DNA of 64,000 nt from an uncultured Gammaproteobacteria bacterium (lineage in GTDB: Bacteria; Patescibacteriota; Microgenomatia; Daviesbacterales; UBA10151). The notes beneath the pieces are model-generated. The model was not told where the DNA came from. It saw only the letters and a program-made list of their open reading frames with translations, and searched no databases. Shown piece after piece: positions 6,398-63,380 of the stretch. The stretch covers positions 69,347 to 133,346 of the forward strand of contig CAZCNP010000002.1 in NCBI GenBank assembly GCA_964500725.1, in the 5' to 3' direction. Position 1 is the first letter of the stretch, and every line of letters begins with the position of its first letter. The position numbers and the translations under genes are program-made.

Positions 6398-6407
6398 TAG
6401 ACAAAAT

Positions 6408-14385: not shown

Positions 14386-14391
14386 CTTTTT

Positions 14392-29594: not shown

Positions 29595-29597
29595 GAT

Positions 29598-34949: not shown

Positions 34950-34962
34950 GAATTATAATTTT

Positions 34963-37990: not shown

Positions 37991-38027
37991 ACGATATATA
38001 TTTGTAGGATAATTGATTTAGAATAAT
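37991..38027. promoter_or_regulatory. Putative divergent promoter region (37 bp) between the GT2 gene on - and the GT-C gene on +.
   Basis: Contains TAGGATAAT / TAGAATAAT -10-like elements. Very compact. Confidence 0.25.
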
Positions 38028-41251: not shown

Positions 41252-41260
41252 AGGTTTATA

Positions 41261-42880: not shown

Positions 42881-42951
42881 ATCTATAATAATGTAGCCAA
42901 AATATGGAGAGTTAGCAAGTACAAATGATAAATGATATGCTTATTTAATAA
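42881..42951. promoter_or_regulatory. Putative divergent promoter region (71 bp).
   Basis: AT-rich with a TATAAT hexamer (ctataataatg). Flanked by divergent GT-C genes. Confidence 0.25.
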
Positions 42952-46382: not shown

Positions 46383-47554
46383 TGTTTAGCAAAATACTAG
46401 GGATATTTTTTTTATGGAGAATAAGTTTGTTTACAGTAGCATTATTGGCAACTATTGCTTTACCAGTATTTGGTAATCGTTTTCCTTATTTCAATCAGGT
46501 GCTTGCTGTAACCGGATTTCCTTCATTTATATGGGGATTTGGCAACTTTGATGGGGTTCATTATTTAAGAATTGCCCAAAATGGTTATGATGCGCAGTAT
46601 TCCCAAGCTTTTTTTCCACTATACCCGTTACTTATACGTTTCGTTAACATGTTACCTAAAAATCCGACATTAGATACCAGAATCTTTGTGGACCCAAGCT
46701 ATTTTATTGTGGGACTTATCTTATCAAATATACTTTTTTTAATATCTTTATATTATTTTTATAAATTAATAAGAATAGATTTTGATCATAAAATCGCTTT
46801 AGGAGCAGTAGTTTTACTAGTTTCTTTTCCTACCTCTTTTTATTTTGGCTCCGTATACACAGAATCACTATTTTTATTATTAGTACTGGCTACACTTTAT
46901 TTTACTAGGAAAGGAAATTTTCTAGCAGCAGGCATTTTTAGCTTATTTGCATCTGTAACAAGGATTTTTGGATTACTACTAATTCCAGTCTTACTAGTTG
47001 AGCTATATTTAAAGATAAAAAGCGGAGAGATTAAATTAAATAGTTGGGAAACAACTAAAGGAATGATTGGAATTTTACTTGCTCCTTTTGGCACGTTGCT
47101 TTATATGTTGTATCTTAGATTGAATTTTGAAAATCCTTTGTATTTTTTGACCTCGCAACCTCTTTTTGGAGCAGAAAGGACACCAAATAGTTTAATTTTG
47201 CTGCCTCAGGTACTTTACAGGTATATAAAAATATTTACAACTGTTCCTCTAAATTCTCTATTATTTTTTAATGCCTTCCTAGAATTTATTTTTACAGTGA
47301 TACCTTTAGCAGTTTTAGTAATATTTTATAAAAAAATGAGGATAAGTTATTTTATATTTACTTTAGGATGTTTAATTTTACCAACCCTAACAGGAACATT
47401 GTCTTCGATGCCCAGATATTCTTTGATGGGTTTTTTAATTTTACCATTTGTTATGCAAAAAATTCATAAAAATTATAAATTATTAATAGGAATTTTTGTA
47501 TCAATTGGGATAATATTGGTAAGTTTTTTTACAAGAGGATATTGGGTAGCATGA
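46382..47554 (+). CDS. Polytopic membrane protein, PIG-V / GPI-mannosyltransferase-2-like GT-C glycosyltransferase.
   Basis: Start at MFSKILG (TAATG overlap). First external loop GFGNFDGVHYLRIAQNGYDAQYSQAFFPLYP resembles the PIG-V family signature. About 10 TM helices. Confidence 0.55.
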   Translation: MFSKILGIFFLWRISLFTVALLATIALPVFGNRFPYFNQVLAVTGFPSFIWGFGNFDGVHYLRIAQNGYDAQYSQAFFPLYPLLIRFVNMLPKNPTLDTRIFVDPSYFIVGLILSNILFLISLYYFYKLIRIDFDHKIALGAVVLLVSFPTSFYFGSVYTESLFLLLVLATLYFTRKGNFLAAGIFSLFASVTRIFGLLLIPVLLVELYLKIKSGEIKLNSWETTKGMIGILLAPFGTLLYMLYLRLNFENPLYFLTSQPLFGAERTPNSLILLPQVLYRYIKIFTTVPLNSLLFFNAFLEFIFTVIPLAVLVIFYKKMRISYFIFTLGCLILPTLTGTLSSMPRYSLMGFLILPFVMQKIHKNYKLLIGIFVSIGIILVSFFTRGYWVA

Positions 47555-48828
47555 AAATTATCTTCAATTTATTAAAAAATCCTCTCTTTTCAGGTAGTAT
47601 TATTATGATAATAGGTAGTAATGCATATAACGCTTTAAATTATTTGTTCCACTTGATTGTTGGTAGACTGCTAGGACCTCCAAGTTACGGAGAATTGGCT
47701 TCACTAATATCATTAGGAGGTCTTTTGGGAGTTATACCGGCAACTGCAAGTTTAGTGATAATAAAATATATTTCCGCTGCCAGGTCTGAGGATGAGATAG
47801 CGATACTGATTAGTTGGTTTAGAAGAAAGACTTTGCAGTTATCAGTTTTAGTCTTTATTCTTTTAATAATATTATCTCCTGTAATTAGATCGTTTCTAAA
47901 TATAAGTAATATATTTTATGTAAGCGGGCTTGCTATCAGTTTTTTGTTTTACTTACCTGCATTACTCAATAGAGCAATATTGCAGGGTTTACTGAAATTT
48001 AAGGAGCTGGTTGTAAGTATATTAATTGAGAATTGCATTAAATTAGTCGGTAGTATTTTTCTTATTTATTTAGGTTATCGTATTGGTGGAGTAATGATAG
48101 CAATTATTGTTTCTGCAGTTTTTAGTTTATATATTACATCTTATTATCTAAAAGTTAATAGCAAGAATAAATTAGGGGTACCTTCTGATATTAAGGCAAT
48201 GATGAAATATACATTTCCGGTTATTGTTCAGTCAATTGCTTTAACTTCTATTTATTCTTCTGACTTAATTTTAGTAAAGCATTTTTTTTCTCCGCATGAT
48301 GCTGGAATTTATGCCTCCTTATCCACTTTAGGAAAAATCATTTTTTTTGGTGCCGGTCCAATCGGAGCAGTTATGTTTCCTTTAGTCTCACAGAAACGGT
48401 CTAAAGGTGCCAGGTGCAATAAGGAAATATTTTATAGCTTTTTATCAACTTTAATTTTAGCAATATTTGTATTGTTAATTTATTGGTTATTCCCTCAGTT
48501 TGCTATAAATCTTCTTTACGGACAATCATTTCTAGAAGCTGTTCCTTTGCTAGTTTGGTTTGGAATATTTATGACATTTTTTACCCTAGCATCGCTTTTA
48601 GTAAGTTTTCATCTTTCTTTAGGCAATACAAAGGTAGTATTACTACCTGCAGTTGCGGCTATTGCCCAAGTTACCCTCATTTGGTTTTACCATGAAAGTC
48701 TATTTAGCGTAATTCAAATTTCACTTATGGTGAGTGCTTTACTACTTGCCTTTCTGCTTATATACTCTAGCTATGCAAAAAAGACTTCAGGAGATCAGAT
48801 TAATTTCAGTAATAGTTCCAGCATATAA
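47551..48828 (+). CDS. Second Wzx-like oligosaccharide flippase (MOP superfamily).
   Basis: ATGA overlap with the upstream gene. About 12-14 TM helices. LLGPPSYGELASLISLGGLLGVIPATASLVIIKYIS is typical of polysaccharide-biosynthesis (Wzx) family proteins. Confidence 0.7.
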   Translation: MKIIFNLLKNPLFSGSIIMIIGSNAYNALNYLFHLIVGRLLGPPSYGELASLISLGGLLGVIPATASLVIIKYISAARSEDEIAILISWFRRKTLQLSVLVFILLIILSPVIRSFLNISNIFYVSGLAISFLFYLPALLNRAILQGLLKFKELVVSILIENCIKLVGSIFLIYLGYRIGGVMIAIIVSAVFSLYITSYYLKVNSKNKLGVPSDIKAMMKYTFPVIVQSIALTSIYSSDLILVKHFFSPHDAGIYASLSTLGKIIFFGAGPIGAVMFPLVSQKRSKGARCNKEIFYSFLSTLILAIFVLLIYWLFPQFAINLLYGQSFLEAVPLLVWFGIFMTFFTLASLLVSFHLSLGNTKVVLLPAVAAIAQVTLIWFYHESLFSVIQISLMVSALLLAFLLIYSSYAKKTSGDQINFSNSSSI

Positions 48829-49594: not shown

Positions 49595-50721
49595 ATATTT
49601 TGATTCTTTCTTGGCGAGGACCTAAGCACCCTAATGCTGGTGGAGCAGAAATTTCTACACATGAACATGCAAAAGGCTGGGTAAAGGTAGGTCATCAAGT
49701 AACTTTGTTTACCTCTGCTTTTGTAAACTGTAAAATGGAAGAAGTAATAGATGGTGTAAAAATAATAAGGCGAGGAAGGCAAATACTTGGGGTTCAATGG
49801 GAGGCTTTTAAATGGTATATATTCGGTAAACACCCTGAATTTGATTTAGTAATTGACCAATTTCATGGTATTCCTTTTTTTGCTCCGTTATATATAAAGG
49901 TTAAGAAGTTAGCATTTATTCATGAAGTAACTAAAGAAGTTTGGTGGTTAAATCCTTGGCCTTGGCCACTGAATAGGATGGTAGCCTTTATTGGAATTGT
50001 ATTTGAACCAGTAATATTTTGGTTATATAGACATATTCCATTTATGACGGTATCAAAGTCTACGCGAGATGATTTAGTTGCTTGGGGAATCCGAAAAGAT
50101 AAAATTACTATAGTCAATAATGGGGTAAAGTTTCCAAAAGTAATGAGTTTTCCCGAGAAAGAAGGCAAAAAAACTCTTATTTTTTTTGGAGCGTTAAGTA
50201 AGGATAAAGGTATAGAGGATGCGCTTATAACTTTTAGATTAGTTAGTCAGACGGAAAAGCAACTACAATTTTGGGTGATAGGTGAAGCTGACCCCAGGTA
50301 TTTACAAAGATTAAAATTGGAAAGTAAAAAGCTAGGAATTGATCAGCTAGTAAAATTTTGGGGGTTTGTTAATGAGAAGAAAAAGTTTGAATTATTGACA
50401 AAAGCCTATTTAGCAATAAACCCTTCTGTTAGGGAGGGTTGGGGTTTAGTTGTGATCGAAGCTGCTGCAATGGGAACTCCTACTATTGGTTATAATGTCC
50501 CTGGATTAAGAGACTCGATAATAGATGGAAAAACAGGTTTACTATCTAAGCCAACTCCCGAGTCTTTAGCAGAAAGAGTATTATATCTTTTGAGGAAAGA
50601 TGCATTATATAAAAAGCTGCAAACTAAATGTATTAAATGGAGTAAACAGTTTAATTGGAGCAAGTCGGTATTAAAGAGTGTAAAATTAGTAAAAGAGGTA
50701 CAATCTGAATTAGTTAATTGA
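49591..50721 (+). CDS. GT4 (GT-B) glycosyltransferase.
   Basis: ATGA overlap with the upstream gene. REGWGLVVIEAAAMGTPTIGYNVPGLRDSIIDGKTGLL (E-x7-E). Confidence 0.82.
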   Translation: MNILILSWRGPKHPNAGGAEISTHEHAKGWVKVGHQVTLFTSAFVNCKMEEVIDGVKIIRRGRQILGVQWEAFKWYIFGKHPEFDLVIDQFHGIPFFAPLYIKVKKLAFIHEVTKEVWWLNPWPWPLNRMVAFIGIVFEPVIFWLYRHIPFMTVSKSTRDDLVAWGIRKDKITIVNNGVKFPKVMSFPEKEGKKTLIFFGALSKDKGIEDALITFRLVSQTEKQLQFWVIGEADPRYLQRLKLESKKLGIDQLVKFWGFVNEKKKFELLTKAYLAINPSVREGWGLVVIEAAAMGTPTIGYNVPGLRDSIIDGKTGLLSKPTPESLAERVLYLLRKDALYKKLQTKCIKWSKQFNWSKSVLKSVKLVKEVQSELVN

Positions 50722-52521
50722 CTTTAGATCTTTCTTAACTTGATCGGTAATATCTAATACCTTTTTATCTATTAATCTCAGGGCAAAGAAATTATTTGAA
50801 TTGTAAAATATATCTTCAAAAATAAAGCCCTTGATGCCATCTCTGGTTACCATTAAGGATTTAAGTTTGTTAAAATCTGTAATTATTGGAGGAACCAGCT
50901 CTCTTCTAAAATTTATCTGCGGCCACCAGCCTGCCCAGCCAGCATTGCCATCTCCACGATATCCAGCGATAATATTTTTTTCGTAATAGTTCTTATTATT
51001 TAAGTCAGTATCCTTATCGATATATATCAAACGAGGATTTTCAATAGAAAGATTCTGATAATACGGTAGTAATTGTCCTCGCATGTAATTTTGATCCTCG
51101 AAATTACCAACAAACAGATAAGGGGAATCAAAAAGTTGTTTTATTTCCTGAACACTGATTACAAAATAAACCAGTATTAATAGGAAAGAAAAATACGCTA
51201 TTCTTTTGAAGAAGGTATTACGCAGTTTTTTATAAAGAACAACTGTAAATGTGCCAAGGAAAAAGTTTATGAATACCGTGGATAGCGTTAAGTAACGATG
51301 CTCGTTAAAAAAAAGAAGATTTCTTTCGTGGGTGCCTACCCACATACCAAAAATCATAATAAAAGAAAAAATAGGACCTAAGAAGAAGCCTACATATAGT
51401 GAGTTCCTATGTTCTAACCAATCTAAGAAAAAAGCTAGGGATAACCCTAAGATGTAAAAACCAATTGGGGATTTGTTTTCAAGATCAATTGAATAATTAG
51501 CGCCACCGGTTAATATAGAAGCTAGTAGTATACCAATAACCCATATTATAAAAGTGATCATAATGAATCTAGATGGATGCTTAGATAGAAGAAGCGCTAG
51601 TGCTGGCGTTAAGAAAAAAAATAGTAAATATATATAAGAGGGCCATATATAGGTTGGTAAGATAGTTGACGCAAATGCGGTAAAAGGTATTAACAGATAG
51701 CCGTTATCATTTCCAGATAAGTTATATTGTATTGTAAGGGCGAGAACAGTAGATATCCTTTCTGTAATATTGGCAGAGGTGATTAATGTTAGGATAATTG
51801 CTAGCAGTAGCGGTAATAAAAAAAAGACAAATCTCCTGATGTTTAAATTTAACTTATTACAAGATCTATTTCTAAATAAAACAAATAGTTCTGATAGTAA
51901 TATGATGATTACAAGAGGATAGGTTCTGGCGGTTGAAATAACAAAAGTTAAGAAAAGGAATATTAAGGCAAGGGGGTATAAGGGAAAGATTCTAGATTCC
52001 TTGCTTTTAATCAAATGGAAATATATCGTTAAAAATATTGACATAGTAGATATAGCTAAATAGTTTCCTGCAGTGACAACATTTAGTAAATCTCCTGTTG
52101 TGGCATAAGAAATGGCAAAAAAGATTGAAGAAACGAAAGCAACTAGGATACTCCCTGATAATACAAAAAATAGGGGATAAGTAGATAATGCAGCTAAAGC
52201 TTTAAAGAAATGTGCTGTTTGATGATAAGCAACAAAATTATCCCCCAAAAAGAAATTTAAAATACCGATATAATAATATTGGTGTAAATATAAGGTTGGC
52301 CATTCTTGGAGACTTTTCATAATGAATTGAACAGGATTTGGATATTGTCTTTTAAGTGTTATGAAAAAGGCAACAGACCCATCATCGATATCTCCAAAAC
52401 CATATTTTAATTGTGGTTGAAGAAGATAAATTTGACTTGCAAAAATAAGTGGAATAAGGATAAAGAAGAGGAAATGAGTTCTAAGCAATTTTTTAACACA
52501 ATTAACCAACTTAGCCTTCAT
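50710..52521 (-). CDS. Polytopic membrane protein (603 aa), putative GT-C glycosyltransferase or polymerase.
   Basis: First loop YGFGDIDDGSVAFFITLKRQY (acidic DD motif). At least 12 TM helices. The 3' end overlaps the convergent GT4 gene by 12 nt. Confidence 0.5.
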   Translation of the reverse strand: MKAKLVNCVKKLLRTHFLFFILIPLIFASQIYLLQPQLKYGFGDIDDGSVAFFITLKRQYPNPVQFIMKSLQEWPTLYLHQYYYIGILNFFLGDNFVAYHQTAHFFKALAALSTYPLFFVLSGSILVAFVSSIFFAISYATTGDLLNVVTAGNYLAISTMSIFLTIYFHLIKSKESRIFPLYPLALIFLFLTFVISTARTYPLVIIILLSELFVLFRNRSCNKLNLNIRRFVFFLLPLLLAIILTLITSANITERISTVLALTIQYNLSGNDNGYLLIPFTAFASTILPTYIWPSYIYLLFFFLTPALALLLSKHPSRFIMITFIIWVIGILLASILTGGANYSIDLENKSPIGFYILGLSLAFFLDWLEHRNSLYVGFFLGPIFSFIMIFGMWVGTHERNLLFFNEHRYLTLSTVFINFFLGTFTVVLYKKLRNTFFKRIAYFSFLLILVYFVISVQEIKQLFDSPYLFVGNFEDQNYMRGQLLPYYQNLSIENPRLIYIDKDTDLNNKNYYEKNIIAGYRGDGNAGWAGWWPQINFRRELVPPIITDFNKLKSLMVTRDGIKGFIFEDIFYNSNNFFALRLIDKKVLDITDQVKKDLKSIN

Positions 52522-52536
52522 TGTTACAATTATATA

Positions 52537-54249
52537 TTAAAACTCTTTCGGGTATTCAAGTGGATACTTAGAAATAATATATTCTCCTAGGATTAAATAA
52601 TCCATATTAGTTCTAAAAAAAGCGGATATAGCATCTTGAGGAGTACAAACGATTGGCTCTCCGGCAAGGTTGAAACTAGTATTTAATAGTGCAGGGATGC
52701 CTGTGAGTTTATAAAACTCATTTATAAGATTCCAATATCTTGGATTAGTTTTTTTAGATACGGTTTGAGGTCTAACTGTTTTATCAATATGCATTGCTGC
52801 AGTTATATCTTTTTGTTTTTCTAGGCATACTCTAGATGAAAGAATCATGAAGGGTGAATTAGGAGTATCAACTAAATAATCTTTTGCATATTCCTGGAGG
52901 ATTGATGGAGCAAACGGTCTCCAATTTTCTCGGCCTTTGACTTTAAGATTAACTAAGTCTTTCATCTTTGGTATCGAAGGGTCTGCCAAAATTGAACGGT
53001 TTCCTAAAGCTCTTGGTCCTACTTCCATTCTTCCTTGAAACCAACCGATTATTTTTCCTTCTGATATTAATTTTGCTACCCTTTTTTCAATATTTTCTTC
53101 TTTTTTATAAAATGGTAGGTCGGCTTTCTTGATGACTTTTAAAATTTGATCATTTGAGAAGGATGGTCCCCAATATGCATGGTTTAATTTAAAATCAGGC
53201 CTTTTTCCTAATACATCTGTATGAATTGCCAATGCAGCTCCCAGGGCGGTTCCGGCATCATTACTAGCAGGTTGAATATAAATATTTTTGACGAAAGATT
53301 GCTTTAAGACTTGAGTATTTGCTAGACAATTCAGCGAAACTCCTCCTGTTAAACAGAAGTTACTAATTCCAGACTTTTCATATAAATATTTCGCCATATA
53401 GATATATGCTTGTTCTATGGTTTTTTGTAGCGACCCAGCGATGTTTCTATTAGGCTTGTCTAATGGATTATTGGATAATTTCTTACTCATTTGATTTAAG
53501 TAAGTTATCATTTTATTTTTATCAACTCTCAAAAACCCATCTTTAAAGCTTACGAAAGGAAAAATATCTACATTTTTATCTGCATATGAAGATAACCCCA
53601 TAACCTTACCAGGCCCATCATAACCGTCAAAACCCAAAAACTCGGTAAAGAATCCATATAAAAAACCAAGGCTGTCATTAATAGGAATCCTTTTTAAAAT
53701 ATTAATCTTTTCCCCATTTCCTATTGCCAATATTCCAGCTTCCTGCCCCCCGCTTCCGTCCATAGATATAATACAAGCATTTTTCATACCGGAACAAAAA
53801 TAAGTACTGGTAATATGAGCAAGATGGTGTCTAATAAATTGCACTCTTTTCTCTCGCCAATTAAAGGGAAGATTTAGAAGACCTTGATAACAAACTAGAA
53901 ATGGTTGGATAATTCCATAAGCTGTACCTGTTATCCATTTAGATTCTATATTTAATTTTGTCCTATTAGTAGAAAGCGTATTTTTCAGTAGGGAAAAGGT
54001 TTTAGTAACTAAATTACTCGTCAAGATTGTCAGATAATTATTGGATCCAATCCCAATATAATCGAGATCATCAATGGTAATATTGCCTTCCTTCAGACAG
54101 TAGTTAATAGAGTGGTAAGCAGGCTGATTAATGGAATGTTTAACTCGGTTAAACCGCTCTTCTTCAGCGAACGCGATAAGTTTACCATCAATTATTAGAG
54201 CGGCGGCCGGATTTAATGAGATAGGATGCGAAATTCCTAATATTTTCAT
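52537..54249 (-). CDS. Carbamoyltransferase of the NodU/CmcH family (O-carbamoyltransferase).
   Basis: N-terminus MKILGISHPISLNPAAALIIDGKLIAFAEEERFNRVKH is the characteristic carbamoyltransferase N-domain signature. 570 aa, the typical size. Confidence 0.8.
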   Translation of the reverse strand: MKILGISHPISLNPAAALIIDGKLIAFAEEERFNRVKHSINQPAYHSINYCLKEGNITIDDLDYIGIGSNNYLTILTSNLVTKTFSLLKNTLSTNRTKLNIESKWITGTAYGIIQPFLVCYQGLLNLPFNWREKRVQFIRHHLAHITSTYFCSGMKNACIISMDGSGGQEAGILAIGNGEKINILKRIPINDSLGFLYGFFTEFLGFDGYDGPGKVMGLSSYADKNVDIFPFVSFKDGFLRVDKNKMITYLNQMSKKLSNNPLDKPNRNIAGSLQKTIEQAYIYMAKYLYEKSGISNFCLTGGVSLNCLANTQVLKQSFVKNIYIQPASNDAGTALGAALAIHTDVLGKRPDFKLNHAYWGPSFSNDQILKVIKKADLPFYKKEENIEKRVAKLISEGKIIGWFQGRMEVGPRALGNRSILADPSIPKMKDLVNLKVKGRENWRPFAPSILQEYAKDYLVDTPNSPFMILSSRVCLEKQKDITAAMHIDKTVRPQTVSKKTNPRYWNLINEFYKLTGIPALLNTSFNLAGEPIVCTPQDAISAFFRTNMDYLILGEYIISKYPLEYPKEF

Positions 54250-54368
54250 GAATGAAATTAGAGCTATTATAGAGTTTAACTATTTTTTAATCAATAGAAA
54301 CTGAAATTAGCTGTATTACTGAGTTTTACCATCTTGTATTATAGTTTTTAAATTTGGATAATCCTGTT
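54250..54368. promoter_or_regulatory. Putative divergent promoter region between the carbamoyltransferase gene (-) and the GT2 gene (+).
   Basis: 119 bp AT-rich non-coding gap, the largest in the locus. Candidate -10 elements (TATTATAG). Confidence 0.25.
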
Positions 54369-55196
54369 ATGCAAAGTGCTTTAGTTTCTATTGTCATAAC
54401 AACAAAGAATGAGGTAGATGTTATAGGCAGATTATTAAAAAGTATTAGAAAGCAGTCATATAGAAAAGTTGAAATTATTGTAGTTGATAATAAATCAACT
54501 GATAGAACAAAGGCAATTGCAAAAAAATTTACAAAAAAAATCTATGATAAAGGTTCAGAAAGATCATCACAAAGAAATTTTGGTGCCCAAAAAGCAAAGG
54601 GTAATTATTTACTTTTTATGGATGCTGATATGGAGTTGTCTGAAAGAGTTGTCGAGGCATGTGTCGTTAAGACAGAAGGAAGTGATAAGATTGTGGCGTT
54701 AATAGTTCCGGAAATATCTAAAGGAAAAGGGTATTGGGAAAAAGTGAAGGCATTTGAAAGATCCTTTTATAATATAGCAGGTGATGACATTACAGATGCA
54801 GCTAGATTTTTTAGAAGAGAAGTATTTGAAAAGGCTGGGGGTTATGATAAAGAATTAACTGGTACGGAGGATTGGGAATTAACAGATAGATTAAGAACAA
54901 AAGGATTTTTAATTGATAGAATTGATGCTTCAATTTATCATTATGAAAGGATTCCTAATTTGTATTCGCTTCTTAAGAAAAAATATTATTATGGCTTAAA
55001 AAGCTATATTTATATCAAAAAACATAGTTTACAAATAATGAATCCAAAAATAATATATTTCTTAAGGCCAGTATTTTATAAACAATGGCAAAGAATGATA
55101 AAGCACCCAGTTCTTACTCTGTCTATGTTTTTTATGTTTGTATTAGAGATGATAGCTGGGGGATTAGGGTATCTAAGAGGTAGATATTATGAGTAA
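54369..55196 (+). CDS. GT2 glycosyltransferase.
   Basis: Start at ATG 54369 (MQSALVSIVITTKNE). The track's start at 54354 is a TTG. KQSYRKVEIIVVDNKSTDRT, FMDADME (DxD). Confidence 0.8.
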   Translation: MQSALVSIVITTKNEVDVIGRLLKSIRKQSYRKVEIIVVDNKSTDRTKAIAKKFTKKIYDKGSERSSQRNFGAQKAKGNYLLFMDADMELSERVVEACVVKTEGSDKIVALIVPEISKGKGYWEKVKAFERSFYNIAGDDITDAARFFRREVFEKAGGYDKELTGTEDWELTDRLRTKGFLIDRIDASIYHYERIPNLYSLLKKKYYYGLKSYIYIKKHSLQIMNPKIIYFLRPVFYKQWQRMIKHPVLTLSMFFMFVLEMIAGGLGYLRGRYYE

Positions 55197-57189
55197 GCTC
55201 TCAGTTTTACAAATCTCACCATTCTTTTCACCTAATACAGGAGGGGTAGAAACCCATTTGGATGATTTGATAAAACTTGCAGGAAAAAGAAAGATTAAAA
55301 ATACTGTTATTGCGTATCAGCCCCTAGTGGGAAGCCAAAGAGATAAAGGTTTTGAAAGGAGGGGTAATAGCAAGATCTATAGAGTCAATTGGTTGAGGAA
55401 TATCTTTTATAAGACTGAAAAATATCCCATCCTTCATTTTATTTACCTAACTCCTTATTTAGCTTTAAGGAGTTTAATTATAATGAAAAAGGAAAGTAAG
55501 AAAATAGATATTGTGCATTCTCACGGCATAAATGCTGCAGTTATCGGAGTTTTAATAAAAAAGCTATTTAAGAAACCTTTAGTTGTAAGTCTCCATGTTG
55601 AATTAAATTTACTTAGAACGACATTTTCTACCAGGTTTATTTTGTTTTGTTTAAAAAAGGCAGACTGTATTTTAGTACTGACAAAAAAAACTAAAAAAAA
55701 GCTTATCAAATTAGGAATCGATGAAAGAAAAATTAAGCTTTTTTCGTATTGGGTTGACCAGCAAATTTTTAGTCCGCAAAATAAACAGCAAATAAGAAAA
55801 CAGCTGAAATGGGATATGCATTTTAATGTGCTTTTTGTTGGTCGTTTGGTTATTGAAAAGGGGGTTAAGGTTTTATTAGATGTTGCTAAGAAAATGCCGG
55901 ATATTCAATTTATTTTTGCAGGTACAGGCCAATTGGATAATGAAGTTAGGCAAAGAAGTAGGGAATATAATAATATTATTTACTTAGGAAAGATCTCTAA
56001 TACTAAGTTAACCACTTATTATAATGCTGCCGATGTGTTGGTGGTTCCTTCTCTAATAGAAAATGTAAAAAAAGAATACGAAGAAGGAGTTCCCAGGGTA
56101 ATAATAGAAGCATTATCTTGCGGTTTACCTATTATAGGAACTGATAACGGTGGAATGAAAGAGATAATTTCAGAGAGTATGGTAGGAAAAGTTTGCGAAG
56201 GCAGTTTGGAGGCCATAATTTTTGCTATAAGAGAGATATCAAATTCCAATCAAATGTATCAATACAAAAATAGGGCTAGGCAATATGCTTTAGAACGTTT
56301 TAATGAACGCAACGGTTTAATAATTATAGATACTTATGAAGAATTAAGGTTCCAGGCTTTAATTGAATCTAAATTAAAAGTCCTTTTAGAAAAAGTAGGA
56401 GATATGGCGTTAAAAAGGCGGGCTCACAGTGTAATTGAATCTTTGGACCTACAAAAGGGTAAGAAAATTTTGGATGTTGGTTGCGGGGATGGATTTTACC
56501 TTTATTTGTTATCAAATCTGGGAGTAAAGCTTAAGTTAGTAGGAATAGATTTAGAGGTAAGAGGTTTAAGAAGTGCCAAAAGGAATTTAAGAAAGAAAAG
56601 TATTACTTTTATCCAAGCTGATTTAATGAAGCGGTTACCGTTTGCTTCCAGCAGTTTTGATAATATAATCATGAGTGAAGTTGCAGAACACCTGTTAGAT
56701 GATGTTAAAGGCCTAAAAGAAGTTTATCGAATTTTAAAGCAAGGAGGTAAGCTTTTATTAACAGTGCCTTGTCAAAGTTATCCATTGTTATGGGATCCAG
56801 TAAATTGGATATTGGAACATTTATTTAAGACCCATATTAAAAGTGGTTTTTGGGCAGGTATTTGGAACCAGCATGTGAGGCTTTATTCTTTGAGAGGCAT
56901 TAATACGGTTCTAGAATCATCCGGTTTTAGTATAGAAAAATCCGAGATACAAACTTTCTGGTGCATTCCTTTTAATCACCATATTCTTAATTTAGGAGCA
57001 AGACTTCTAACAAGTAAGCGTTTGCCTAGCTCACTTGAGAATTCTGTTAATAAATTTTCGGAAAGCCCGAATAAAAATATTAATCCAATAAGCCTTTTTT
57101 TTGCAATTATTAATCTTATTGATAAACTGAATAATGTTTTATCAATTAATTCATCAGGAGTTTCAATTTTTGTTAAAGCAAGGAAATAG
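55189..57189 (+). CDS. Fusion protein: N-terminal GT4 glycosyltransferase and C-terminal class I SAM-dependent methyltransferase.
   Basis: Residues 1-390 are GT4 (GVPRVIIEALSCGLPIIGTDNGGMKEII). Residues about 400-600 carry the SAM-binding motif I ILDVGCGDGFY, acidic motif II (GIDLE), and LKQGGKLLLTVP (post-II/III). Confidence 0.8.
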   Translation: MSKLSVLQISPFFSPNTGGVETHLDDLIKLAGKRKIKNTVIAYQPLVGSQRDKGFERRGNSKIYRVNWLRNIFYKTEKYPILHFIYLTPYLALRSLIIMKKESKKIDIVHSHGINAAVIGVLIKKLFKKPLVVSLHVELNLLRTTFSTRFILFCLKKADCILVLTKKTKKKLIKLGIDERKIKLFSYWVDQQIFSPQNKQQIRKQLKWDMHFNVLFVGRLVIEKGVKVLLDVAKKMPDIQFIFAGTGQLDNEVRQRSREYNNIIYLGKISNTKLTTYYNAADVLVVPSLIENVKKEYEEGVPRVIIEALSCGLPIIGTDNGGMKEIISESMVGKVCEGSLEAIIFAIREISNSNQMYQYKNRARQYALERFNERNGLIIIDTYEELRFQALIESKLKVLLEKVGDMALKRRAHSVIESLDLQKGKKILDVGCGDGFYLYLLSNLGVKLKLVGIDLEVRGLRSAKRNLRKKSITFIQADLMKRLPFASSSFDNIIMSEVAEHLLDDVKGLKEVYRILKQGGKLLLTVPCQSYPLLWDPVNWILEHLFKTHIKSGFWAGIWNQHVRLYSLRGINTVLESSGFSIEKSEIQTFWCIPFNHHILNLGARLLTSKRLPSSLENSVNKFSESPNKNINPISLFFAIINLIDKLNNVLSINSSGVSIFVKARK

Positions 57190-57204
57190 ATTAATTATTT
57201 ATTA

Positions 57205-58260
57205 TTAACCTCCGTAATTTTTAATTGGTGGAGCTACTTTTAACAGTTTTAGAGTTTCATAATAGATGATCATTATAATTGTGTAGTAGCATAAAGGTAT
57301 GTGAATACAATAGATGATTTTTTTACGGGTTAAAAGAAAATATATCGAATCTTTCAAAGGGAATATAAAGCTGAGGGTGTAGGGGATAAATAGATATTTT
57401 TTTAACTTAAACCATAAAGATTGGAATTGGTTACGACCCGAATATCCTGCTTTGCCCATGTCGGTATTGAAGATATTATTCTTAATTCGAGAATTAATTT
57501 TCTTTAAATATTTATTAAGTGAAGCAGATGAATAGTGAACGGTACTATCATTTTTTGTTATAGCAATAAAATCTCCCTTTTTGTTTAATAAATAAAATAA
57601 TAAAGCGATTAAATGAGGATTTCTTTTTAAGTTAGGGAATACCTTCTTTGCATACTTAAGATCGAACATGCATCCTCCAGCCCACAATTCTATCTGTGGG
57701 AGTAATTTAATACTGGATAAATCCAATATGACGAAGTTATTAGTGTTAGAGACAACAGGGTATTTTTCAGACCATTCTCTTACCATAAAGTATTCATTTT
57801 TGGATTCATGATAGATAAAAAAAGAAAAAGGATCTCCAAAATCATTAATATAATAATTTATTGAGGGATAATTTAAGGGTGTTTTATAACCGCCTAATAA
57901 TACTGCCTTAACTTGAGGATTTTTTCTAAAAGCAGAATATTTGATCTTTAAACTATCGCGATTATCGAGAACCTCATCGCTGTCTAAATAGATAATATAT
58001 TTTCCGGTTGCCTTTAGAAAACCGAGATACTTAGCGTAGATTAATTCTACTTTCGAGTTAGTGATAATTTTGCAACGATATTTTTTTGCTATATTAATTG
58101 TTTGATCATTAGATCTACCATCTACTACTAAAATTTCAATTTTATCCTGAGGGTATGACTGCTTCTTTATAGATTCTAAAGTCATTTTGACTGTTTTCTC
58201 TGAGTTAAATGTAGCTACTACGATACTAATAATAGGATATGTATCAAGTTTTTTTATCAT
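57205..58260 (-). CDS. GT2 glycosyltransferase, paralog of the gene at 54369.
   Basis: ISIVVATFNSEKTV, KKQSYPQDKIEILVVDGRSNDQT, YLDSDE (DxD). 351 aa. Confidence 0.8.
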   Translation of the reverse strand: MIKKLDTYPIISIVVATFNSEKTVKMTLESIKKQSYPQDKIEILVVDGRSNDQTINIAKKYRCKIITNSKVELIYAKYLGFLKATGKYIIYLDSDEVLDNRDSLKIKYSAFRKNPQVKAVLLGGYKTPLNYPSINYYINDFGDPFSFFIYHESKNEYFMVREWSEKYPVVSNTNNFVILDLSSIKLLPQIELWAGGCMFDLKYAKKVFPNLKRNPHLIALLFYLLNKKGDFIAITKNDSTVHYSSASLNKYLKKINSRIKNNIFNTDMGKAGYSGRNQFQSLWFKLKKYLFIPYTLSFIFPLKDSIYFLLTRKKIIYCIHIPLCYYTIIMIIYYETLKLLKVAPPIKNYGG

Positions 58261-59345
58261 TTCATTAGGAAATCTACAATAATTTTAGATGGTTGCACTT
58301 TGGTGGTTATAGGGGGATTGATGTATTTGGTATATTCTTGCAGAAAAGACAAAGTAGTTTCTCTGTTGTTTTTACTTATAACTACATTTTTATTAATTCC
58401 TTCTATACGTTCTGTGTTATTTCGTAAAGAGAGCATCGGTAAACCCATATAATAAGCTTCTTCTTGGTTGATGCCGCCATCCGTGGCGATAAATTCGGCA
58501 TTTTTCATAAAATGGACGAATTGGACATAGGGTAAACGTGGAATAACAGTTATACCTTTGGCATTTATCCATGATTTAAATACTTTGGGTTTCATCAATC
58601 TTTTTGTTAAGGTATACATCATCAAGGCGCAGGTTAAGTTTTTATCAGCGTGATCAATTATAAAGTTTAGTATTCGTTGAGTCTGTTTCTTTTGAAAATA
58701 GATATGCTCTTGCCTATGCATAATTAAAACATAGTATTTAGCAATTTTTTTCCGGCGGTCTAATGAACTCTCTTTCTGTAGTGCCCAAAGGTAAGATTCG
58801 AGAAGCGTATTTTGATGAGTATTAACTCTGGTTCCTCTGATATTCTTTAAGTTGTCAAAGGCCCACTTTGTAGGACTAAACAAGATATCGGAGAGATGGA
58901 TGATTATAAACCTGCATATCTCTTCCGGAAAAGGCTCAAAAAAATTAAAAGATCTTAATCCAGACTCTATATGTACTAGTTTCAACCTATATCGGATAGC
59001 AATAATAGCTCCTATTAAAGCAGAGATTGTATCGCCGTGTATTATGAAATAACTATTGCTTTTATTTAAACCTTTGAATTCTTTATTCAAAATGATACAA
59101 GATATGAACAATGTTTTAATAGCCCAGAGAAAGAAATGTATCATTGAAGATCGTTGGGATTTTTCAGCGAGCGCTATATCGGCTCTTAAGATTCCGCAGT
59201 ATTCCGCTAAATCCTCGAAATTTATTCTGTTTTGGCCAGATGTAATAATCTTAAAATGAATACCCCTTGATTTAAGCTCTTTTATTACAGGAGCTAGTTT
59301 AATAAATTCAGCAGTAGTCCCCAGAAAAAAATAGATTTTTTTCAT
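58257..59345 (-). CDS. UDP-N-acetylglucosamine 2-epimerase (WecB/MnaA)-like protein; the middle region is divergent.
   Basis: N-terminus MKKIYFFLGTTAEFIKLAPVIKEL (compare the GTRPExIKxAPV signature). C-terminus ATDGGINQEEAYYMGLPMLSLRNNTERIEG (compare TDSGGxQEEA...LRxxTERPE). Confidence 0.6.
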   Translation of the reverse strand: MKKIYFFLGTTAEFIKLAPVIKELKSRGIHFKIITSGQNRINFEDLAEYCGILRADIALAEKSQRSSMIHFFLWAIKTLFISCIILNKEFKGLNKSNSYFIIHGDTISALIGAIIAIRYRLKLVHIESGLRSFNFFEPFPEEICRFIIIHLSDILFSPTKWAFDNLKNIRGTRVNTHQNTLLESYLWALQKESSLDRRKKIAKYYVLIMHRQEHIYFQKKQTQRILNFIIDHADKNLTCALMMYTLTKRLMKPKVFKSWINAKGITVIPRLPYVQFVHFMKNAEFIATDGGINQEEAYYMGLPMLSLRNNTERIEGINKNVVISKNNRETTLSFLQEYTKYINPPITTKVQPSKIIVDFLMK

Positions 59346-59427: not shown

Positions 59428-62139
59428 GTGTTTTTAAAGAACAAAGTTTGGTTTCGGGATTTAGTATTTATCAGCATTATCTCACTTGTTATTACAACTA
59501 TATGGTTTCGTCATGGTGTTTTGTACGGAGGAGGAGAATCAGGGTTATATTTCAACGATTTAAATTTAACTTTGAAGAATTCTTTCTCAGTTTGGCTTGA
59601 TAGTTATGTCGGCGTTCCATCACTTTATCAAATTATTAATATACCATTTTATTTTTTTTCTTATCTACTTTTTATTCTCAAAATTCCAGGTTGGTTAATT
59701 CAAGCATTTATAAATTTCATTTTACTTAGTACAGGAATGATTTCGATGTATTTCCTTCTTCAAAAAACGCTTTCGAAAAATAATTGTTATAGTGGAGGTG
59801 CGCTTTTTGGAGCCCTTTTTTATTTATTCAATCTTTATTCAATGAGCCAAATCTGGAGCAGAGGGCTTTATCAGCAGTTTATTCCGTTTGCTTCTTTTCC
59901 GTTAATGTTTTTGCTGGCATATCTGGCATTAGAAAAGCTGCAGACTGTTTATATTTTAATTTTACTTATAGCATCATTTATTTTTTCTGCTGGATATACT
60001 CCAGCAAATGTACTGTCTTTTTGGATAATGATAGGGATAGAGTTTTTATATTTTTTTTGGTTTTATAGAAAGAAGTTTAATTATCTTTTGAAGAGTGCTA
60101 TTTTATTTTTTGTTCTTGTATTTGGATGGATAGGGATTCATTCCTCCTGGATTGTTGGATATTTTCTATTTGCAAATAATCTATATTTATCAAACCCATC
60201 TGTTAGAAACGAAGGATTAGGTACGCTTTTGACGATAAGTAGATACTCGCCTTTAACCTCTGTTCTTCGTCTTGTTCAGGATTATTACTTTAATAGTAAT
60301 TTACTTTATGGAGACTTTTATCCCTCTTCATTCTTCAAGATAACTAGTTGGATTACTCCGATATTGTTTTTATTCAGTCTCTCAGCAGTGAAACGAGCCG
60401 AAAAGATGTATTTGTGGATGATTTTATTATTTGTCGCTTTATTTATTTGTTTAGGTGCAAGTTTGCCATTAGGATTTATATTTGTGTGGTTTTTTCAAAT
60501 TTTCCCAATTTTAGAATTATTTAGAAATCCTTATGAAAAATTTGGAATTGTTTTATTAATATCTTATACACCTTTTATTGCTCTTGGGTACTTAAAATTA
60601 TCAGAATTTTTGAAGCTTAGGTTTAGAATGTTTCAATCTTTCTTCAAAACTATTATCATTTTCATAATTTTTTTTCTGCTGGTTTGGCCAATGTGGACAG
60701 GACTTGTTATAACTACAAAGGATAATCGTAATTTTGTCAATATTCCATCCTACTATCAAGAGTTAAAGGATTGGATGGAGAAGCATAATAAAATTAATAA
60801 TCGGATTGCCATGTTGCCCTTTTTGCCTGGTGAAGGAGTAACTTTGGAATGGAATGGAAGAATTTATTCTGGTATTGATCCAAGTATAAATATCTTGGAT
60901 TATTCTATTATTTCTTGGGTGCAGAATTACCCTTATATAGAACCGCTACTAAAGGAGGTTTATAAAGATATAAATAAAATAGATATAACTTCAATATTTG
61001 GATTGCTTAGAGCAAAATACTTAGTTATTAGGGATGATGTTTTAGAGGTAAATAAAAGAGATTTGCAACAGGAAGAAAGTTTGTTGCATGCTGTTTATGC
61101 GCCTCAAGCCATCAATGAACAGATGCCTGTCATCTGTCCGAACCAAGCATCGACTTTATATACAGAAAACCATTTAATTTTTATTTGTCAGATTCCTGTC
61201 AACCTTTCTGATTGGAGGAGATATCATTATCTGCATTTACTTGTTAAAACAGATAAACCTGCAGCTTTAGATATAGCTCTAAGAGATCAAAATAATGAAA
61301 GACCTAGGTGGGATGGGACTACTAATCCTGATTTTAGAACATATTCTTCTAACTTAACTAATTTATTTTTGGATTTGGATCTATATATATACTCAGATGA
61401 GAAATTTAATCCATCCGTAGTTAAATCATTGGAAATTTATGGTTATTCGAATCCTGAGATTAAAGATTCATTGTTGCCTACAAAAGTGGAAGTAATAGCG
61501 GGACATCTTGACTCTGGCAAAAAGACAGATGTAGATAATTATAATTTCATTAAGCAGTTCGGAAGATTAAGATTATACCAATTGAAAAAATACCAAGATT
61601 TTCCCGATATAACTACTTTAGCAGACCTTTTTATGGTAGATAATTTTTCGCAAATGTTCAAAGTAGCAGCTAATCTATCCGTGATAGATGGATCTAGAGG
61701 TTATATGCTTAGATCGCAAAATGACAAGTTTACTCCATTGACAAGCTTTTCTAGGTATGCGTCAAAGTCTGTAACCGAGCTTTCCTCAACAAAATATTTA
61801 GTTAATCTGGAAAGTAAGGAAAATTATTATTTGGCTTTGCACAAAACTTTTAATACTTTATGGAAAGTTATACCAAATGTTTCAGAGGGTGATTTAAAAG
61901 GTGGCTTTATTAATAATATACGCCTTATACAAAAACAAACTCTATCAGAAAAAAACCATTTTATAGTAAATGGTTATGCCAATGGCTGGAAGCTTGACCA
62001 GCAAAGCAATGAATATGCTGTAGTATTTATTCCTCAAATTATTACAGAGATATTGATTTACGTTTCCGTGGTATTTCTTTTATTCATATTATTTCTCCTA
62101 TTTTGTCTGTTAAAAATTAACAAAGTTAAATCTAAGTAA
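59428..62139 (+). CDS. Large 903-aa membrane protein: N-terminal polytopic domain (about 430 aa), large extracytoplasmic domain and a C-terminal TM anchor; YfhO- or AftD-like GT-C glycosyltransferase candidate.
   Basis: GTG start. About 12 N-terminal TM helices with an acidic loop (GGGESGLYFNDLN), a soluble region of about 430 aa, and a final hydrophobic helix (ILIYVSVVFLLFILFLLFCLL). This architecture resembles YfhO-type LTA/WTA glycosyltransferases. Confidence 0.5.
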   Translation: MFLKNKVWFRDLVFISIISLVITTIWFRHGVLYGGGESGLYFNDLNLTLKNSFSVWLDSYVGVPSLYQIINIPFYFFSYLLFILKIPGWLIQAFINFILLSTGMISMYFLLQKTLSKNNCYSGGALFGALFYLFNLYSMSQIWSRGLYQQFIPFASFPLMFLLAYLALEKLQTVYILILLIASFIFSAGYTPANVLSFWIMIGIEFLYFFWFYRKKFNYLLKSAILFFVLVFGWIGIHSSWIVGYFLFANNLYLSNPSVRNEGLGTLLTISRYSPLTSVLRLVQDYYFNSNLLYGDFYPSSFFKITSWITPILFLFSLSAVKRAEKMYLWMILLFVALFICLGASLPLGFIFVWFFQIFPILELFRNPYEKFGIVLLISYTPFIALGYLKLSEFLKLRFRMFQSFFKTIIIFIIFFLLVWPMWTGLVITTKDNRNFVNIPSYYQELKDWMEKHNKINNRIAMLPFLPGEGVTLEWNGRIYSGIDPSINILDYSIISWVQNYPYIEPLLKEVYKDINKIDITSIFGLLRAKYLVIRDDVLEVNKRDLQQEESLLHAVYAPQAINEQMPVICPNQASTLYTENHLIFICQIPVNLSDWRRYHYLHLLVKTDKPAALDIALRDQNNERPRWDGTTNPDFRTYSSNLTNLFLDLDLYIYSDEKFNPSVVKSLEIYGYSNPEIKDSLLPTKVEVIAGHLDSGKKTDVDNYNFIKQFGRLRLYQLKKYQDFPDITTLADLFMVDNFSQMFKVAANLSVIDGSRGYMLRSQNDKFTPLTSFSRYASKSVTELSSTKYLVNLESKENYYLALHKTFNTLWKVIPNVSEGDLKGGFINNIRLIQKQTLSEKNHFIVNGYANGWKLDQQSNEYAVVFIPQIITEILIYVSVVFLLFILFLLFCLLKINKVKSK

Positions 62140-62171: not shown

Positions 62172-63380
62172 ATGAAAGATTCTAAGCTTCATTTTTATTT
62201 CTTAGCTCTTGCAGCCAGGGGTAAGGGTTTGTCAGGGAGTGACCGAATTTTTATTGAGCTTTCTAAACGATGGTCGAAAGAAAACCCTGTTGAAATATTT
62301 GTTTGGCAAGAAGGGTTCCAGATGTGCCATAGGCAAGGGTTGGATAAGAGTAGGGTAAAGTTTAATATTGTTTCTTTAAGCAGCTGGGAGAAACATAACT
62401 TTGTTATAAACTACGTCTCGCTTATTATAAAAGGTATTTGGTTGGCATTTAAATTAGATCTAAAAAATGATAAATTTACTATTATTTATTCAGCATCTGA
62501 TTTCTGGATGGATTGTATACCTGGCTGGATATTAAAATGTAGATTTCCTAAAATAAATTGGATTGGAAGCTGGTATTTAACTGCCTCCAATCCAAGGAAG
62601 GGTTTTATAGAGGATCATACGCTAATCAAGAATCCTCAAATTAGTCCTTTTCTCTATTGGTTATCACAAAAACTTGCTTATAATTTAGTCAAAAGAAAGT
62701 CAGATTTTGTCTTTGTTACTAGTGAACCAGATAAATTAAAATTTCCTAATCAACTTAAAGATAAAAGAGCTTTAGCAATAAAGGGAGGTGTGGATTTAGA
62801 AGCCATTAACTTTTGGCAAAAGGAGTTTAAAGGATTACCTAAGATTTATGATGCTGTTTTTCAAGGTAGGTTTCACCCCCAGAAAGGCGTAGTGAAACTT
62901 GTTGATATCTGGAAGATAGTTGTTAATAAGAAACATGATGCTAAATTAATAATGATAGGAGATGGACCTTTAATGCAGAAGGTGCAAAATAAAATCAGTA
63001 AGCTTAAATTGGAAAATAACGTTACTTTAGTGGGATATAAATATGATGGAGAGAAAAAATATAAGATTTTCCATCAAACTAAAATAGTTGTTCATCCGGC
63101 AATTTATGATTCCGGCGGTATGGCTGCAGCGGAAGCAATGGCTTGGGGTTTGCCAGGGGTTAGTTTTAATCTGGAAGCGTTAAAAACATATTATCCAAAG
63201 GGTGTACTTAAGGCTTCTCTGGGAGATGAAAAGGAATTTGCAAAGTTAGTAATTGAGTTGTTGGATAATCCGAAACTTTATCAAAAAATAGCTACAGAAG
63301 CAAAAGATTTAATATTGGGGAACTGGGATTGGAATAAAAGGGCAAGGGAAATTGTTGCATTAATCAAAAATAATCTCTAG
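62172..63380 (+). CDS. GT4 (GT-B) glycosyltransferase.
   Basis: C-terminal IYDSGGMAAAEAMAWGLPGVSFNLEALKTYYP (E-x7-E-like GT4 motif). 402 aa. Confidence 0.8.
   Translation: MKDSKLHFYFLALAARGKGLSGSDRIFIELSKRWSKENPVEIFVWQEGFQMCHRQGLDKSRVKFNIVSLSSWEKHNFVINYVSLIIKGIWLAFKLDLKNDKFTIIYSASDFWMDCIPGWILKCRFPKINWIGSWYLTASNPRKGFIEDHTLIKNPQISPFLYWLSQKLAYNLVKRKSDFVFVTSEPDKLKFPNQLKDKRALAIKGGVDLEAINFWQKEFKGLPKIYDAVFQGRFHPQKGVVKLVDIWKIVVNKKHDAKLIMIGDGPLMQKVQNKISKLKLENNVTLVGYKYDGEKKYKIFHQTKIVVHPAIYDSGGMAAAEAMAWGLPGVSFNLEALKTYYPKGVLKASLGDEKEFAKLVIELLDNPKLYQKIATEAKDLILGNWDWNKRAREIVALIKNNL

Follow-up and report, generated by a model that had tools for sequence, protein, structure and literature searches.

Do the two enzymes that can be read from one long open reading frame (ORF) belong to a single protein and, if so, what would that protein do? 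The question is raised by a locus of Candidatus Daviesbacteria, from the Candidate Phyla Radiation (CPR, or Patescibacteria), on contig CAZCNP010000002.1, of which we analysed a stretch of 64,000 nucleotides (hereafter, the window). An initial annotation, made from the DNA letters, described an ORF at positions 55189-57189 of its forward strand as a family GT4 glycosyltransferase (GT) fused to a class I methyltransferase (MTase) dependent on S-adenosylmethionine (SAM). Our results indicate that this fusion is genuine and evolutionarily retained. Judging from sequence comparisons and structural models, its product is probably a bifunctional, soluble or peripheral cytoplasmic enzyme, which would transfer a sugar onto an envelope glycan carried by a lipid and O-methylate it.

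Two catalytic domains in one reading frame

The ORF begins with an ATG, overlapping by 8 nucleotides (nt) the 3′ end of an upstream family GT2 glycosyltransferase gene, and continues uninterrupted for 666 codons, a stop-free length expected by chance with a probability of ca. 2e-25 (0.082 stops expected per codon at the local base composition). The order proposed in the initial annotation, a GT4 unit followed by a class I MTase, was confirmed by the ORF call, by Pfam matches above thresholds and by an AlphaFold2 model. The GT4 domain (GT-B fold, retaining type; amino acid (aa) residues 1 to ca. 385) is encoded at 55189-56343, as deduced from Pfam, conserved residues and fold matches, and is followed on the same strand by a linker at 56344-56400 (residues 386-404, LRFQALIESKLKVLLEKVG) and by the MTase domain at 56401-57186 (residues ca. 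405-666). The junction had been correctly situated around 56350-56400 (residues ca. 386-404). The model of the whole protein, obtained with an alignment of 142 sequences (mean pLDDT of 94.7, pTM of 0.92), predicts a GT-B fold, one long helix (residues 374-400) in which the junction lies, and a seven-stranded MTase core. No solved structure was found that spans both a GT4 and an MTase domain, hydropathy analysis did not predict transmembrane segments in the fusion protein, and a scan of 54100-57400 for promoters and terminators yielded the counts expected from shuffled sequences.

The N-terminal half matches the Pfam profiles Glyco_transf_4 (PF13439; residues 18-190, 2e-16, 60.8 bits with a gathering cutoff of 28.5) and Glycos_transf_1 (PF00534; residues 199-365, 1e-26, 93.6 bits with a gathering cutoff of 26.4). 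We aligned the window protein with 14 fused relatives and one protein of another architecture (alignment A2, 16 sequences). The glycines G18 and G19 of a Gly-rich loop (PNTGGVETH, residues 15-23), R219 and K224 from the stretch VGRLVIEKG (residues 217-225), and E299 and E307 from the EX7E motif EGVPRVIIE, a GT4 signature at 56083-56109 (forward strand; residues 299-307), are invariant in this alignment. In GT4 and GT-B enzymes, the conserved Arg and Lys of the GR...EKG motif bind the phosphates of the nucleotide sugar. The fold matches of this half include MshA (3c4q; E 2.7e-24, TMt 0.77), BshA, PimB′, PimA, PglA and, in rank 26, ManT (7qsg). On the basis of its profiles, motifs and predicted fold, the N-terminal half can be classed as a GT4 enzyme of the GT-B type.

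The C-terminal half matches Methyltransf_11 (residues 428-523, 1e-20, 74.7 bits with a cutoff of 21.2), Methyltransf_23 (residues 420-583, 3e-15) and, likewise above gathering thresholds, Methyltransf_31, _25 and _12 (residues ca. 420-583). Both motifs initially quoted as SAM-binding are in place, ILDVGCGDGFY (motif I) at residues 427-437 (nt 56467-56499, with LDVGCGDG at residues 428-435) and LKQGGKLLLTVP at residues 516-527. Motif I and the acidic residue of strand 2 (VGIDL, D454) are encoded within 56467-56553 (forward strand); the acidic residue that closes strand 2 in class I MTases binds the ribose of SAM. The residues G, C, G, D and G of motif I and D454 are invariant in an alignment of 73 free-standing members of the MTase family (A4), and motif I, D454 and the motif SEVxEH are invariant or nearly so in both A2 and A4; the SAM-binding residues are, in short, intact and conserved across relatives, and the motifs align with the corresponding ones of solved MTases. 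The full model predicts seven strands (residues 426-430, 449-454, 473-476, 490-496, 516-528, 581-588 and 659-665), also found when the domain was modelled alone (pLDDT of 92.4). Since the last core strand is the extreme C-terminus, the 'tail' past residue 583 belongs to the MTase and not to an extra domain; residues 387-666 also align over the full length of free-standing homologues (283-285 aa), at 54-55% identity. Profile matches, motif I, the acidic residue and the seven predicted strands argue for the assignment of this half to the class I MTases.

Besides these general features, the MTase contains three aromatic-rich motifs, WDPVNW (residues 535-540), GFWAGIWNQHVRLY (residues 553-566) and FWCIPFNH (residues 590-597), encoded at 56791-56979 (forward strand), which are invariant or near-invariant in A2 and A4 (family consensus WDPxNW, GFWAGIWNQHxRxY and WCxPFNH) and would form a substrate-binding lid. 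Neither Pfam nor NCBIfam contains a specific model for these motifs. NCBIfam families match both halves below threshold (TuaC, BshA and MshA the N-terminal half; DVU_1556-type and UbiE/UbiG the C-terminal one), so that no equivalog-level function can be assigned to either of them. We also dropped the idea of deducing the donor sugar from the likeness to BshA, MshA and TuaC, because identity is ca. 20% and all NCBIfam scores are far under the cutoffs.

Origin and recurrence of the fusion

An identical protein of 666 aa was assembled in three separate runs (SRR12113430, SRR12113384 and SRR12113383), and the same protein is recorded on a contig of 277,668 bp (sources NCBI and Logan). Its translation shows neither a stop nor a change of frame in the junction region (56350-56400). 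Furthermore, 14 other clusters, defined at 90% identity, encode full-length fused proteins of 644-667 aa that are 41-61% identical to that from the window.

The related loci that we inspected (L004-L008, L026, L027, L029 and L030; L007 is a Candidatus Daviesbacteria metagenome-assembled genome) indicate that fusion is not the usual state. In eight of the nine (L004, L005, L007, L008, L026, L027, L029 and L030), the GT4 (372-394 aa) and the MTase (276-294 aa) are the products of separate, overlapping genes. The MTase gene is in the +1 frame with respect to the GT4 gene in all six of the translated split loci (which exclude L029 and L030), and in four of them (L007, L008, L026 and L027) its Shine-Dalgarno (SD) sequence AGGAG and its ATG are embedded in the stretch of the GT4 gene that encodes the conserved peptide AERRYSE. 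A one-base deletion or a two-base insertion within the overlap should then suffice to fuse both genes. Runs of six or seven adenines occur in or near several overlaps (L026, 2054-2060; L005, 6184-6190; L007, 11038-11044 and 11100-11105; L008, 11085-11091); they are plausible indel hotspots, which could drive a switch between the split and fused states or cause frameshifts at the sequencing level. In the window, the linker (residues 386-404) takes the place of the GT4 stop codon and of the N-terminal residues of a free MTase. The AGGAG and the +1-frame ATG that begin the MTase gene in split loci are absent; the peptide ALERFNERNG stands where these have AERRYSE, with loss of both the SD and the start, and there is no A6-A7 run at the junction.

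These data allow us to weigh the alternative that the single ORF arose artificially or is a pseudo-fusion in decay: an indel introduced by assembly or sequencing, or a very recent frameshift, would have merged two genes, and only one half would be functional. Such an origin would agree with the existence of separate genes, overlapping in different frames, in eight of the nine related loci, and with the indel-prone adenine runs of several overlaps. However, the identical product was independently assembled from three runs, the 14 fused relatives keep the catalytic residues of both halves, the window lacks the internal SD and start of the split form as well as any A6-A7 run at the junction, and AlphaFold2 predicts a confident, continuous helix over it. 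We thus consider this alternative largely refuted and hardly credible; the frameshift or junction artefact against which the initial annotation had cautioned did not appear, and the fused and split orthologues that it had envisaged both exist (14 fused clusters and eight split loci). We also rejected an internal start at M406 (AGGAGatATG, nt 56394-56405), because the spacing between SD and ATG is just 2 nt and because the GDM codons are set by a conserved protein motif found inside free-standing MTases, whose true starts lie ca. 18 codons upstream.

An exhaustive search of 1.84 billion representatives retrieved 102 clusters (50% identity) of the MTase family at E<1e-30, mostly of 270-300 aa, and the best 120 matches to the MTase half are all of free-standing size (261-294 aa, 49-67% identity). 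The family is fused to a GT4 in seven of these 102 closest clusters. Fusions to a GT4 are found in the same order as in the window (P0156, P0166, P0175, P0188, P0214 and P0229) and in the reverse order (P0149). It is also fused to a Wzy_C O-antigen ligase/polymerase-type protein (P0202), to a Wzx-type flippase (P0024; L028, 765-2753), to DUF218 (P0146) and to a second methyltransferase (P0138). The informative fusion partners are all proteins for the assembly of surface polysaccharides, which ties the MTase family to surface-glycan assembly. The gene for P0024 neighbours those for a sulfotransferase, a GT4 and a DegT aminotransferase. The frequency and variety of these fusions, to GT4, Wzx and Wzy_C proteins, do not support the suggestion that such an architecture is uncommon outside natural-product and mycobacterial pathways, which is also countered by characterised GT-MTase fusions in S-layer and viral glycan synthesis (PMC2943079, PMC9614988); nor was the tailoring-type setting initially proposed borne out, because the locus is a cell-envelope glycan island. 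One further candidate, P0118, named 'glycosyltransferase.../SAM-dependent methyltransferase' in the automated annotation of the Joint Genome Institute (JGI), was rejected as a fused orthologue, because it carries an unrelated MTase at its N-terminus (order MTase-GT4) and represents an independent architecture.

In a neighbour-joining tree of the MTase halves, fused proteins sit in at least six places among the free-standing ones. For loci in which both halves are known, we also built bootstrapped trees (100 replicates). The GT4 tree contains two clades, A and B, each with 100% bootstrap support and both with fusions, a split recovered in none of the 100 bootstraps of the MTase half, so that the two trees are incongruent. 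For instance, the MTases from L026 and L027 are the closest to that of the window (68-69% identity), whereas identity falls to 38-39% for their GT4s, which belong to the other fully supported clade. Likewise, the fused protein P0014 combines a clade-B GT4 with an MTase that groups with those of the clade-A proteins P0007 and P0012 (100% support). These mosaics point to recombination at the GT4/MTase junction, which, given the presence of fusions in both clades and the incongruence of the trees, has repeatedly been a point of recombination and of fusion or fission. We therefore rejected a single ancestral fusion, as fused and split forms alternate in the tree and fusions appear in both GT4 clades. 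In all, the fusion is a minority state of a widespread, conserved pair of overlapping genes. It probably arose by a small indel in the +1-offset overlap, and such fusion has happened more than once. It is genuine but unremarkable, one of several independent and easily generated fusions of a common overlapping pair in the surface-glycan loci of CPR bacteria.

A conserved cassette in a glycan-assembly island

Comparative analyses place the fused gene in a conserved cassette of Daviesbacteria-like CPR bacteria, with the order GT2, GT4 and MTase, whose MTase is recognisable by the motifs WDPxNW, GFWAGIWNQHxRxY and WCxPFNH. This synteny was found in all nine related loci, and the GT4 and the MTase are adjacent or fused in each of the ten loci inspected. 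The GT2 gene of the window (54354-55196, forward strand) encodes 280 aa with a C-terminal hydrophobic helix, as deduced from Pfam and hydropathy; it is the conserved upstream partner, located directly upstream at 53-63% identity in the seven loci compared by BLASTP (7/7), and in L029 and L030 gene calls likewise place a GT2 gene immediately before that of the GT4. The protein carries two complete catalytic modules, with intact motifs, and both functions are genetically coupled in every related locus inspected.

How could these enzymes work together? In the mechanism that we favour, an oligosaccharide anchored in the membrane, probably through a polyprenyl lipid, would be lengthened at the cytoplasmic face by the GT2 and by the GT4 domain, the latter taking its sugar from a nucleotide sugar, and the C-terminal MTase would use SAM to O-methylate the newly added or a neighbouring sugar before export. 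Wzx-type flippases would then export the product, which the extracytoplasmic GT-C enzymes of the island would process further. That one protein both transfers and methylates a sugar is made more likely by the adjacency or fusion of GT4 and MTase in all ten loci.

Several observations weigh against this interpretation. The top Foldseek matches of the MTase half are RebM and AtmM (E 1e-15 to 3e-15; TM 0.56-0.65; 17-21% identity), and PMT, TleD, SpnF and unannotated MTases come next, at most an order of magnitude behind; RebM and AtmM are only marginally ahead of generic small-molecule MTases, and the models do not set sugar O-methylation apart from other chemistries. The MTase family is itself biochemically uncharacterised, and its role in sugar O-methylation is putative. 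No WbaP/WecA-type priming phosphoglycosyltransferase was found in the window, so that the lipid acceptor is one that we only infer, as we do the donor sugar and the methylated position. Lastly, the incongruence between the trees means that co-evolution of the MTase with a single type of GT4 is not strict, and the sugar that it methylates may be one added by a different enzyme, for example the ever-present GT2.

This last point leads to a different possibility, in which the MTase would modify a residue that a different member of the cassette, such as the GT2, has added, or a group of the glycan other than a hydroxyl (amine, carboxyl or phosphate), the fusion serving only for co-expression or co-localisation. 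We regard it as the main rival, although unlikely, and the incongruent trees give it some support. It is compatible with the tree data, both the high MTase and low GT4 identity of L026 and L027 and the absence of clade B from the 100 MTase bootstraps, with the GT2 being the most constant member of the cassette, with the existence of Wzx, Wzy_C and DUF218 as fusion partners of the MTase family in place of GT4, and with the presence of the N-methyltransferases PMT and MitM among the sequence and fold matches. On the other hand, the MTase always comes directly after the GT4, which is by far its commonest fusion partner, and in the precedent of the chlorovirus protein A064R, described below, the MTase methylates the sugar from the adjacent GT domain. 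We thus retain sugar transfer and O-methylation by the same polypeptide as the preferred explanation.

Other genes around the cassette recur in subsets of the loci, namely those for a second GT4, an epimerase, an AftD-like GT-C, a carbamoyltransferase and a membrane protein of ca. 600 aa. The epimerase is a WecB-like homologue of UDP-GlcNAc 2-epimerases (58257-59345, reverse strand); in L029 and L030 its counterparts come immediately after the MTase, and L007 has a copy with 48% identity. It is followed by a gene (59428-62139, forward strand) for a polytopic membrane protein of 903 aa with many transmembrane segments, a weak Pfam match to AftD-like GT-C proteins and 30% identity to an AftD-like protein from L006; AftD-like genes are present also in L029 and L030, and this protein is likely an extracytoplasmic transferase of the pathway of the cassette. 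The second GT4-type enzyme (402 aa; 62172-63380, forward strand) is 46-51% identical to proteins encoded past the MTase gene in L004, L005 and L006. On the other side, and divergent from the GT2-GT4-MTase operon, there is a gene for a NodU/CmcH-type carbamoyltransferase (52537-54249, reverse strand), with a 33% identical copy near the cassette of L007, from which the glycan may be O-carbamoylated as well as methylated. The adjacent membrane protein (603 aa; 50710-52521, reverse strand) is polytopic and without a Pfam match; distantly related proteins are encoded next to the cassette of L007 and of L004, that of L007 having 629 aa and 23% identity over 647 columns (E 7e-29). With respect to the sugar, the recurrent WecB-like epimerase and the similarity of the GT4 to BshA and MshA, which use UDP-GlcNAc, point weakly to an N-acetylhexosamine; deoxyhexoses are equally possible, given the rml and gmd genes of the island.

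The whole window, with a GC content of ca. 31-37%, constitutes a glycan-assembly island, in which sugar-nucleotide genes, several GT2 and GT4 genes and those for Wzx flippases are accompanied by genes for about 15 membrane proteins of the GT-C type (PMT_2, YfhO/PTPS_related, PIG-V-like and AftD-like). Genes for an RmlA-like nucleotidyltransferase and homologues of rmlB, rmlC, rmlD and a GDP-mannose dehydratase are found at 2874-7424, directly followed by a gene for a GT2 with a GtrA/DPMS transmembrane domain (DPMS/GtrB-like; 7489-8676, forward strand), likely a polyprenyl-phosphate-sugar synthase supplying donors to the GT-C enzymes of the island. A second fusion, of 731 aa (9877-12072, forward strand), comprises a GT2 (residues 7-168) and a PMT_2-type GT-C membrane domain (residues ca. 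298-456), and may join a polyprenyl-phosphate-sugar synthase to a GT-C that uses its product. The two Wzx-type flippases are encoded at 21063-22535 and 47542-48828.

The gene content of the island is also relevant to a third role for the fusion, as a chain-length regulator or terminator, in which the methyl would be a non-reducing-end cap that ends chain growth and licenses export, as with WbdD (Escherichia coli O8/O9a) or WsaE. Methyl caps are indeed a known use of GT-associated MTases, and WsaE, a fusion in the order MTase-GT-GT, caps an S-layer glycan by methylation (PMC2943079). Cap-dependent termination belongs, however, to ABC-transporter (Wzm/Wzt) pathways, and among the window ORFs of at least 150 aa we found no Pfam match to an ABC transporter, a kinase or a coiled-coil protein; the island contains Wzx-type flippases instead, and the related loci are also without ABC transporter, kinase or coiled-coil genes. 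We consider this role quite improbable.

Other features of the window are of interest in their own right. GT-C paralogy is extreme at 12862-21058 and 27969-44550, with four tandem YfhO/PTPS_related genes of ca. 560 aa at 14392-21058, around ten PMT_2-type genes in the island and a PIG-V-like gene at 46325-47554. In addition to the 603-aa protein mentioned above, four large polytopic proteins did not match Pfam at the thresholds used, encoded at 22535-25987 (1150 aa), 25984-27972 (662 aa), 41261-42880 (reverse strand, 539 aa) and 8673-9827 (reverse strand, 384 aa), making five in total. The gene for release factor 2, at 433-1500 (reverse strand), is a single uninterrupted ORF of 355 aa that aligns over its full length with its homologues, so that the programmed +1 frameshift common in bacterial prfB appears to be absent here. 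This protein shares 88% identity with its Candidatus Daviesbacteria counterpart, and its best matches that carry a name are all from Daviesbacteria or Patescibacteria.

What, then, does the fusion teach us? It reveals no new kind of system, and GT-MTase fusions as such are already characterised; what is new is the MTase family, which is uncharacterised, has motifs of its own and lacks a dedicated Pfam or NCBIfam model. The fusion can be read as a 'Rosetta stone', linking this anonymous family to a GT4/GT2 cassette and, hence, to surface-glycan methylation in CPR bacteria. CPR envelopes are almost unstudied, and our literature search on CPR glycosylation retrieved nothing that bears on the GT2-GT4-MTase cassette; the fused form is in this context a handy single-protein target for biochemical assignment of the donor sugar, the acceptor and the methylated position, although of modest practical value. 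More tentatively, and with some doubt, the MTases could be a CPR-enriched family with an aromatic-rich lid, acting in a Daviesbacteria envelope-glycan pathway as a dedicated, portable glycan-methylating module, which recombines freely between both lineages of GT4 and has joined GT4, Wzx or Wzy partners time and again. In that case, the fusion would offer a single-chain tool to make a specific methylated sugar epitope, and would be the marker of a methylated glycan, as yet undescribed, on the surface of ultrasmall episymbiotic bacteria.

Comparison with known systems

In mycobacteria, GT4 enzymes work together with SAM-dependent MTases on O-methylated glycans, as occurs with ManT and MeT1 for methylmannose polysaccharide (MMP) and with Rv3032 and Rv3030 for methylglucose lipopolysaccharide (MGLP). 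The mycobacterial GT and MTase are separate proteins, and their products are cytoplasmic polymethylated polysaccharides. The likeness of these systems to the window is generic to GT4, and the rest of the locus does not resemble those clusters. RebM and AtmM, which are glycoside sugar 4′-O-methyltransferases, share with the C-terminal half the class I fold and methylate the sugar after its attachment. They differ in being natural-product tailoring enzymes, without the WDPxNW, GFWAGIWNQHxRxY and WCxPFNH motifs and without fusion to a GT.

The true orthologous systems are the eight split gene pairs, from Candidatus Daviesbacteria and other uncultured bacteria, which have the same order and motifs as the window, with 48-69% identity for the MTases and 37-48% for the GT4s. 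Unlike the fusion, they keep the genes separate but overlapping: that for the MTase is read in the +1 frame, from an SD and ATG of its own situated within the 3′ end of the GT4 gene. Terminators of the WbdD type differ in that their MTase is coupled to kinase or coiled-coil modules, and to Wzm/Wzt, for which there are no Pfam matches among the window ORFs of at least 150 aa.

Two characterised fusions offer functional parallels. WsaE, from Geobacillus stearothermophilus NRS 2004/3a, is a soluble protein with an N-terminal MTase and two rhamnosyltransferase domains for the S-layer glycan; it methylates the type of sugar that it polymerises, the methyl being a chain-terminating cap in an ABC-transporter pathway (PMC2943079). 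It resembles the window protein in joining an MTase and a GT in one polypeptide, encoded in a surface-glycan cluster with overlapping genes, and differs in its domain order (MTase-GT-GT), in its rhamnosyltransferases and in its ABC-transporter pathway, as the window is without Wzm/Wzt genes. Likewise, A064R from chlorovirus PBCV-1 contains two rhamnosyltransferase domains and a C-terminal class I MTase, shown biochemically to 2-O-methylate the terminal rhamnose (PMC9614988). As in the window, the GT domains precede a C-terminal class I SAM-dependent MTase in a single polypeptide; according to its published description, the first GT domain (D1) of A064R has a GT-A fold and the second (D2) represents a novel family, whereas the window protein has one GT4 of the GT-B type, and the viral product is a capsid N-glycan. 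The fused protein of the window is thus analogous in function to A064R and WsaE, with which it shares the combination of GT and MTase, but is not an architectural homologue, since the types and order of the domains differ.

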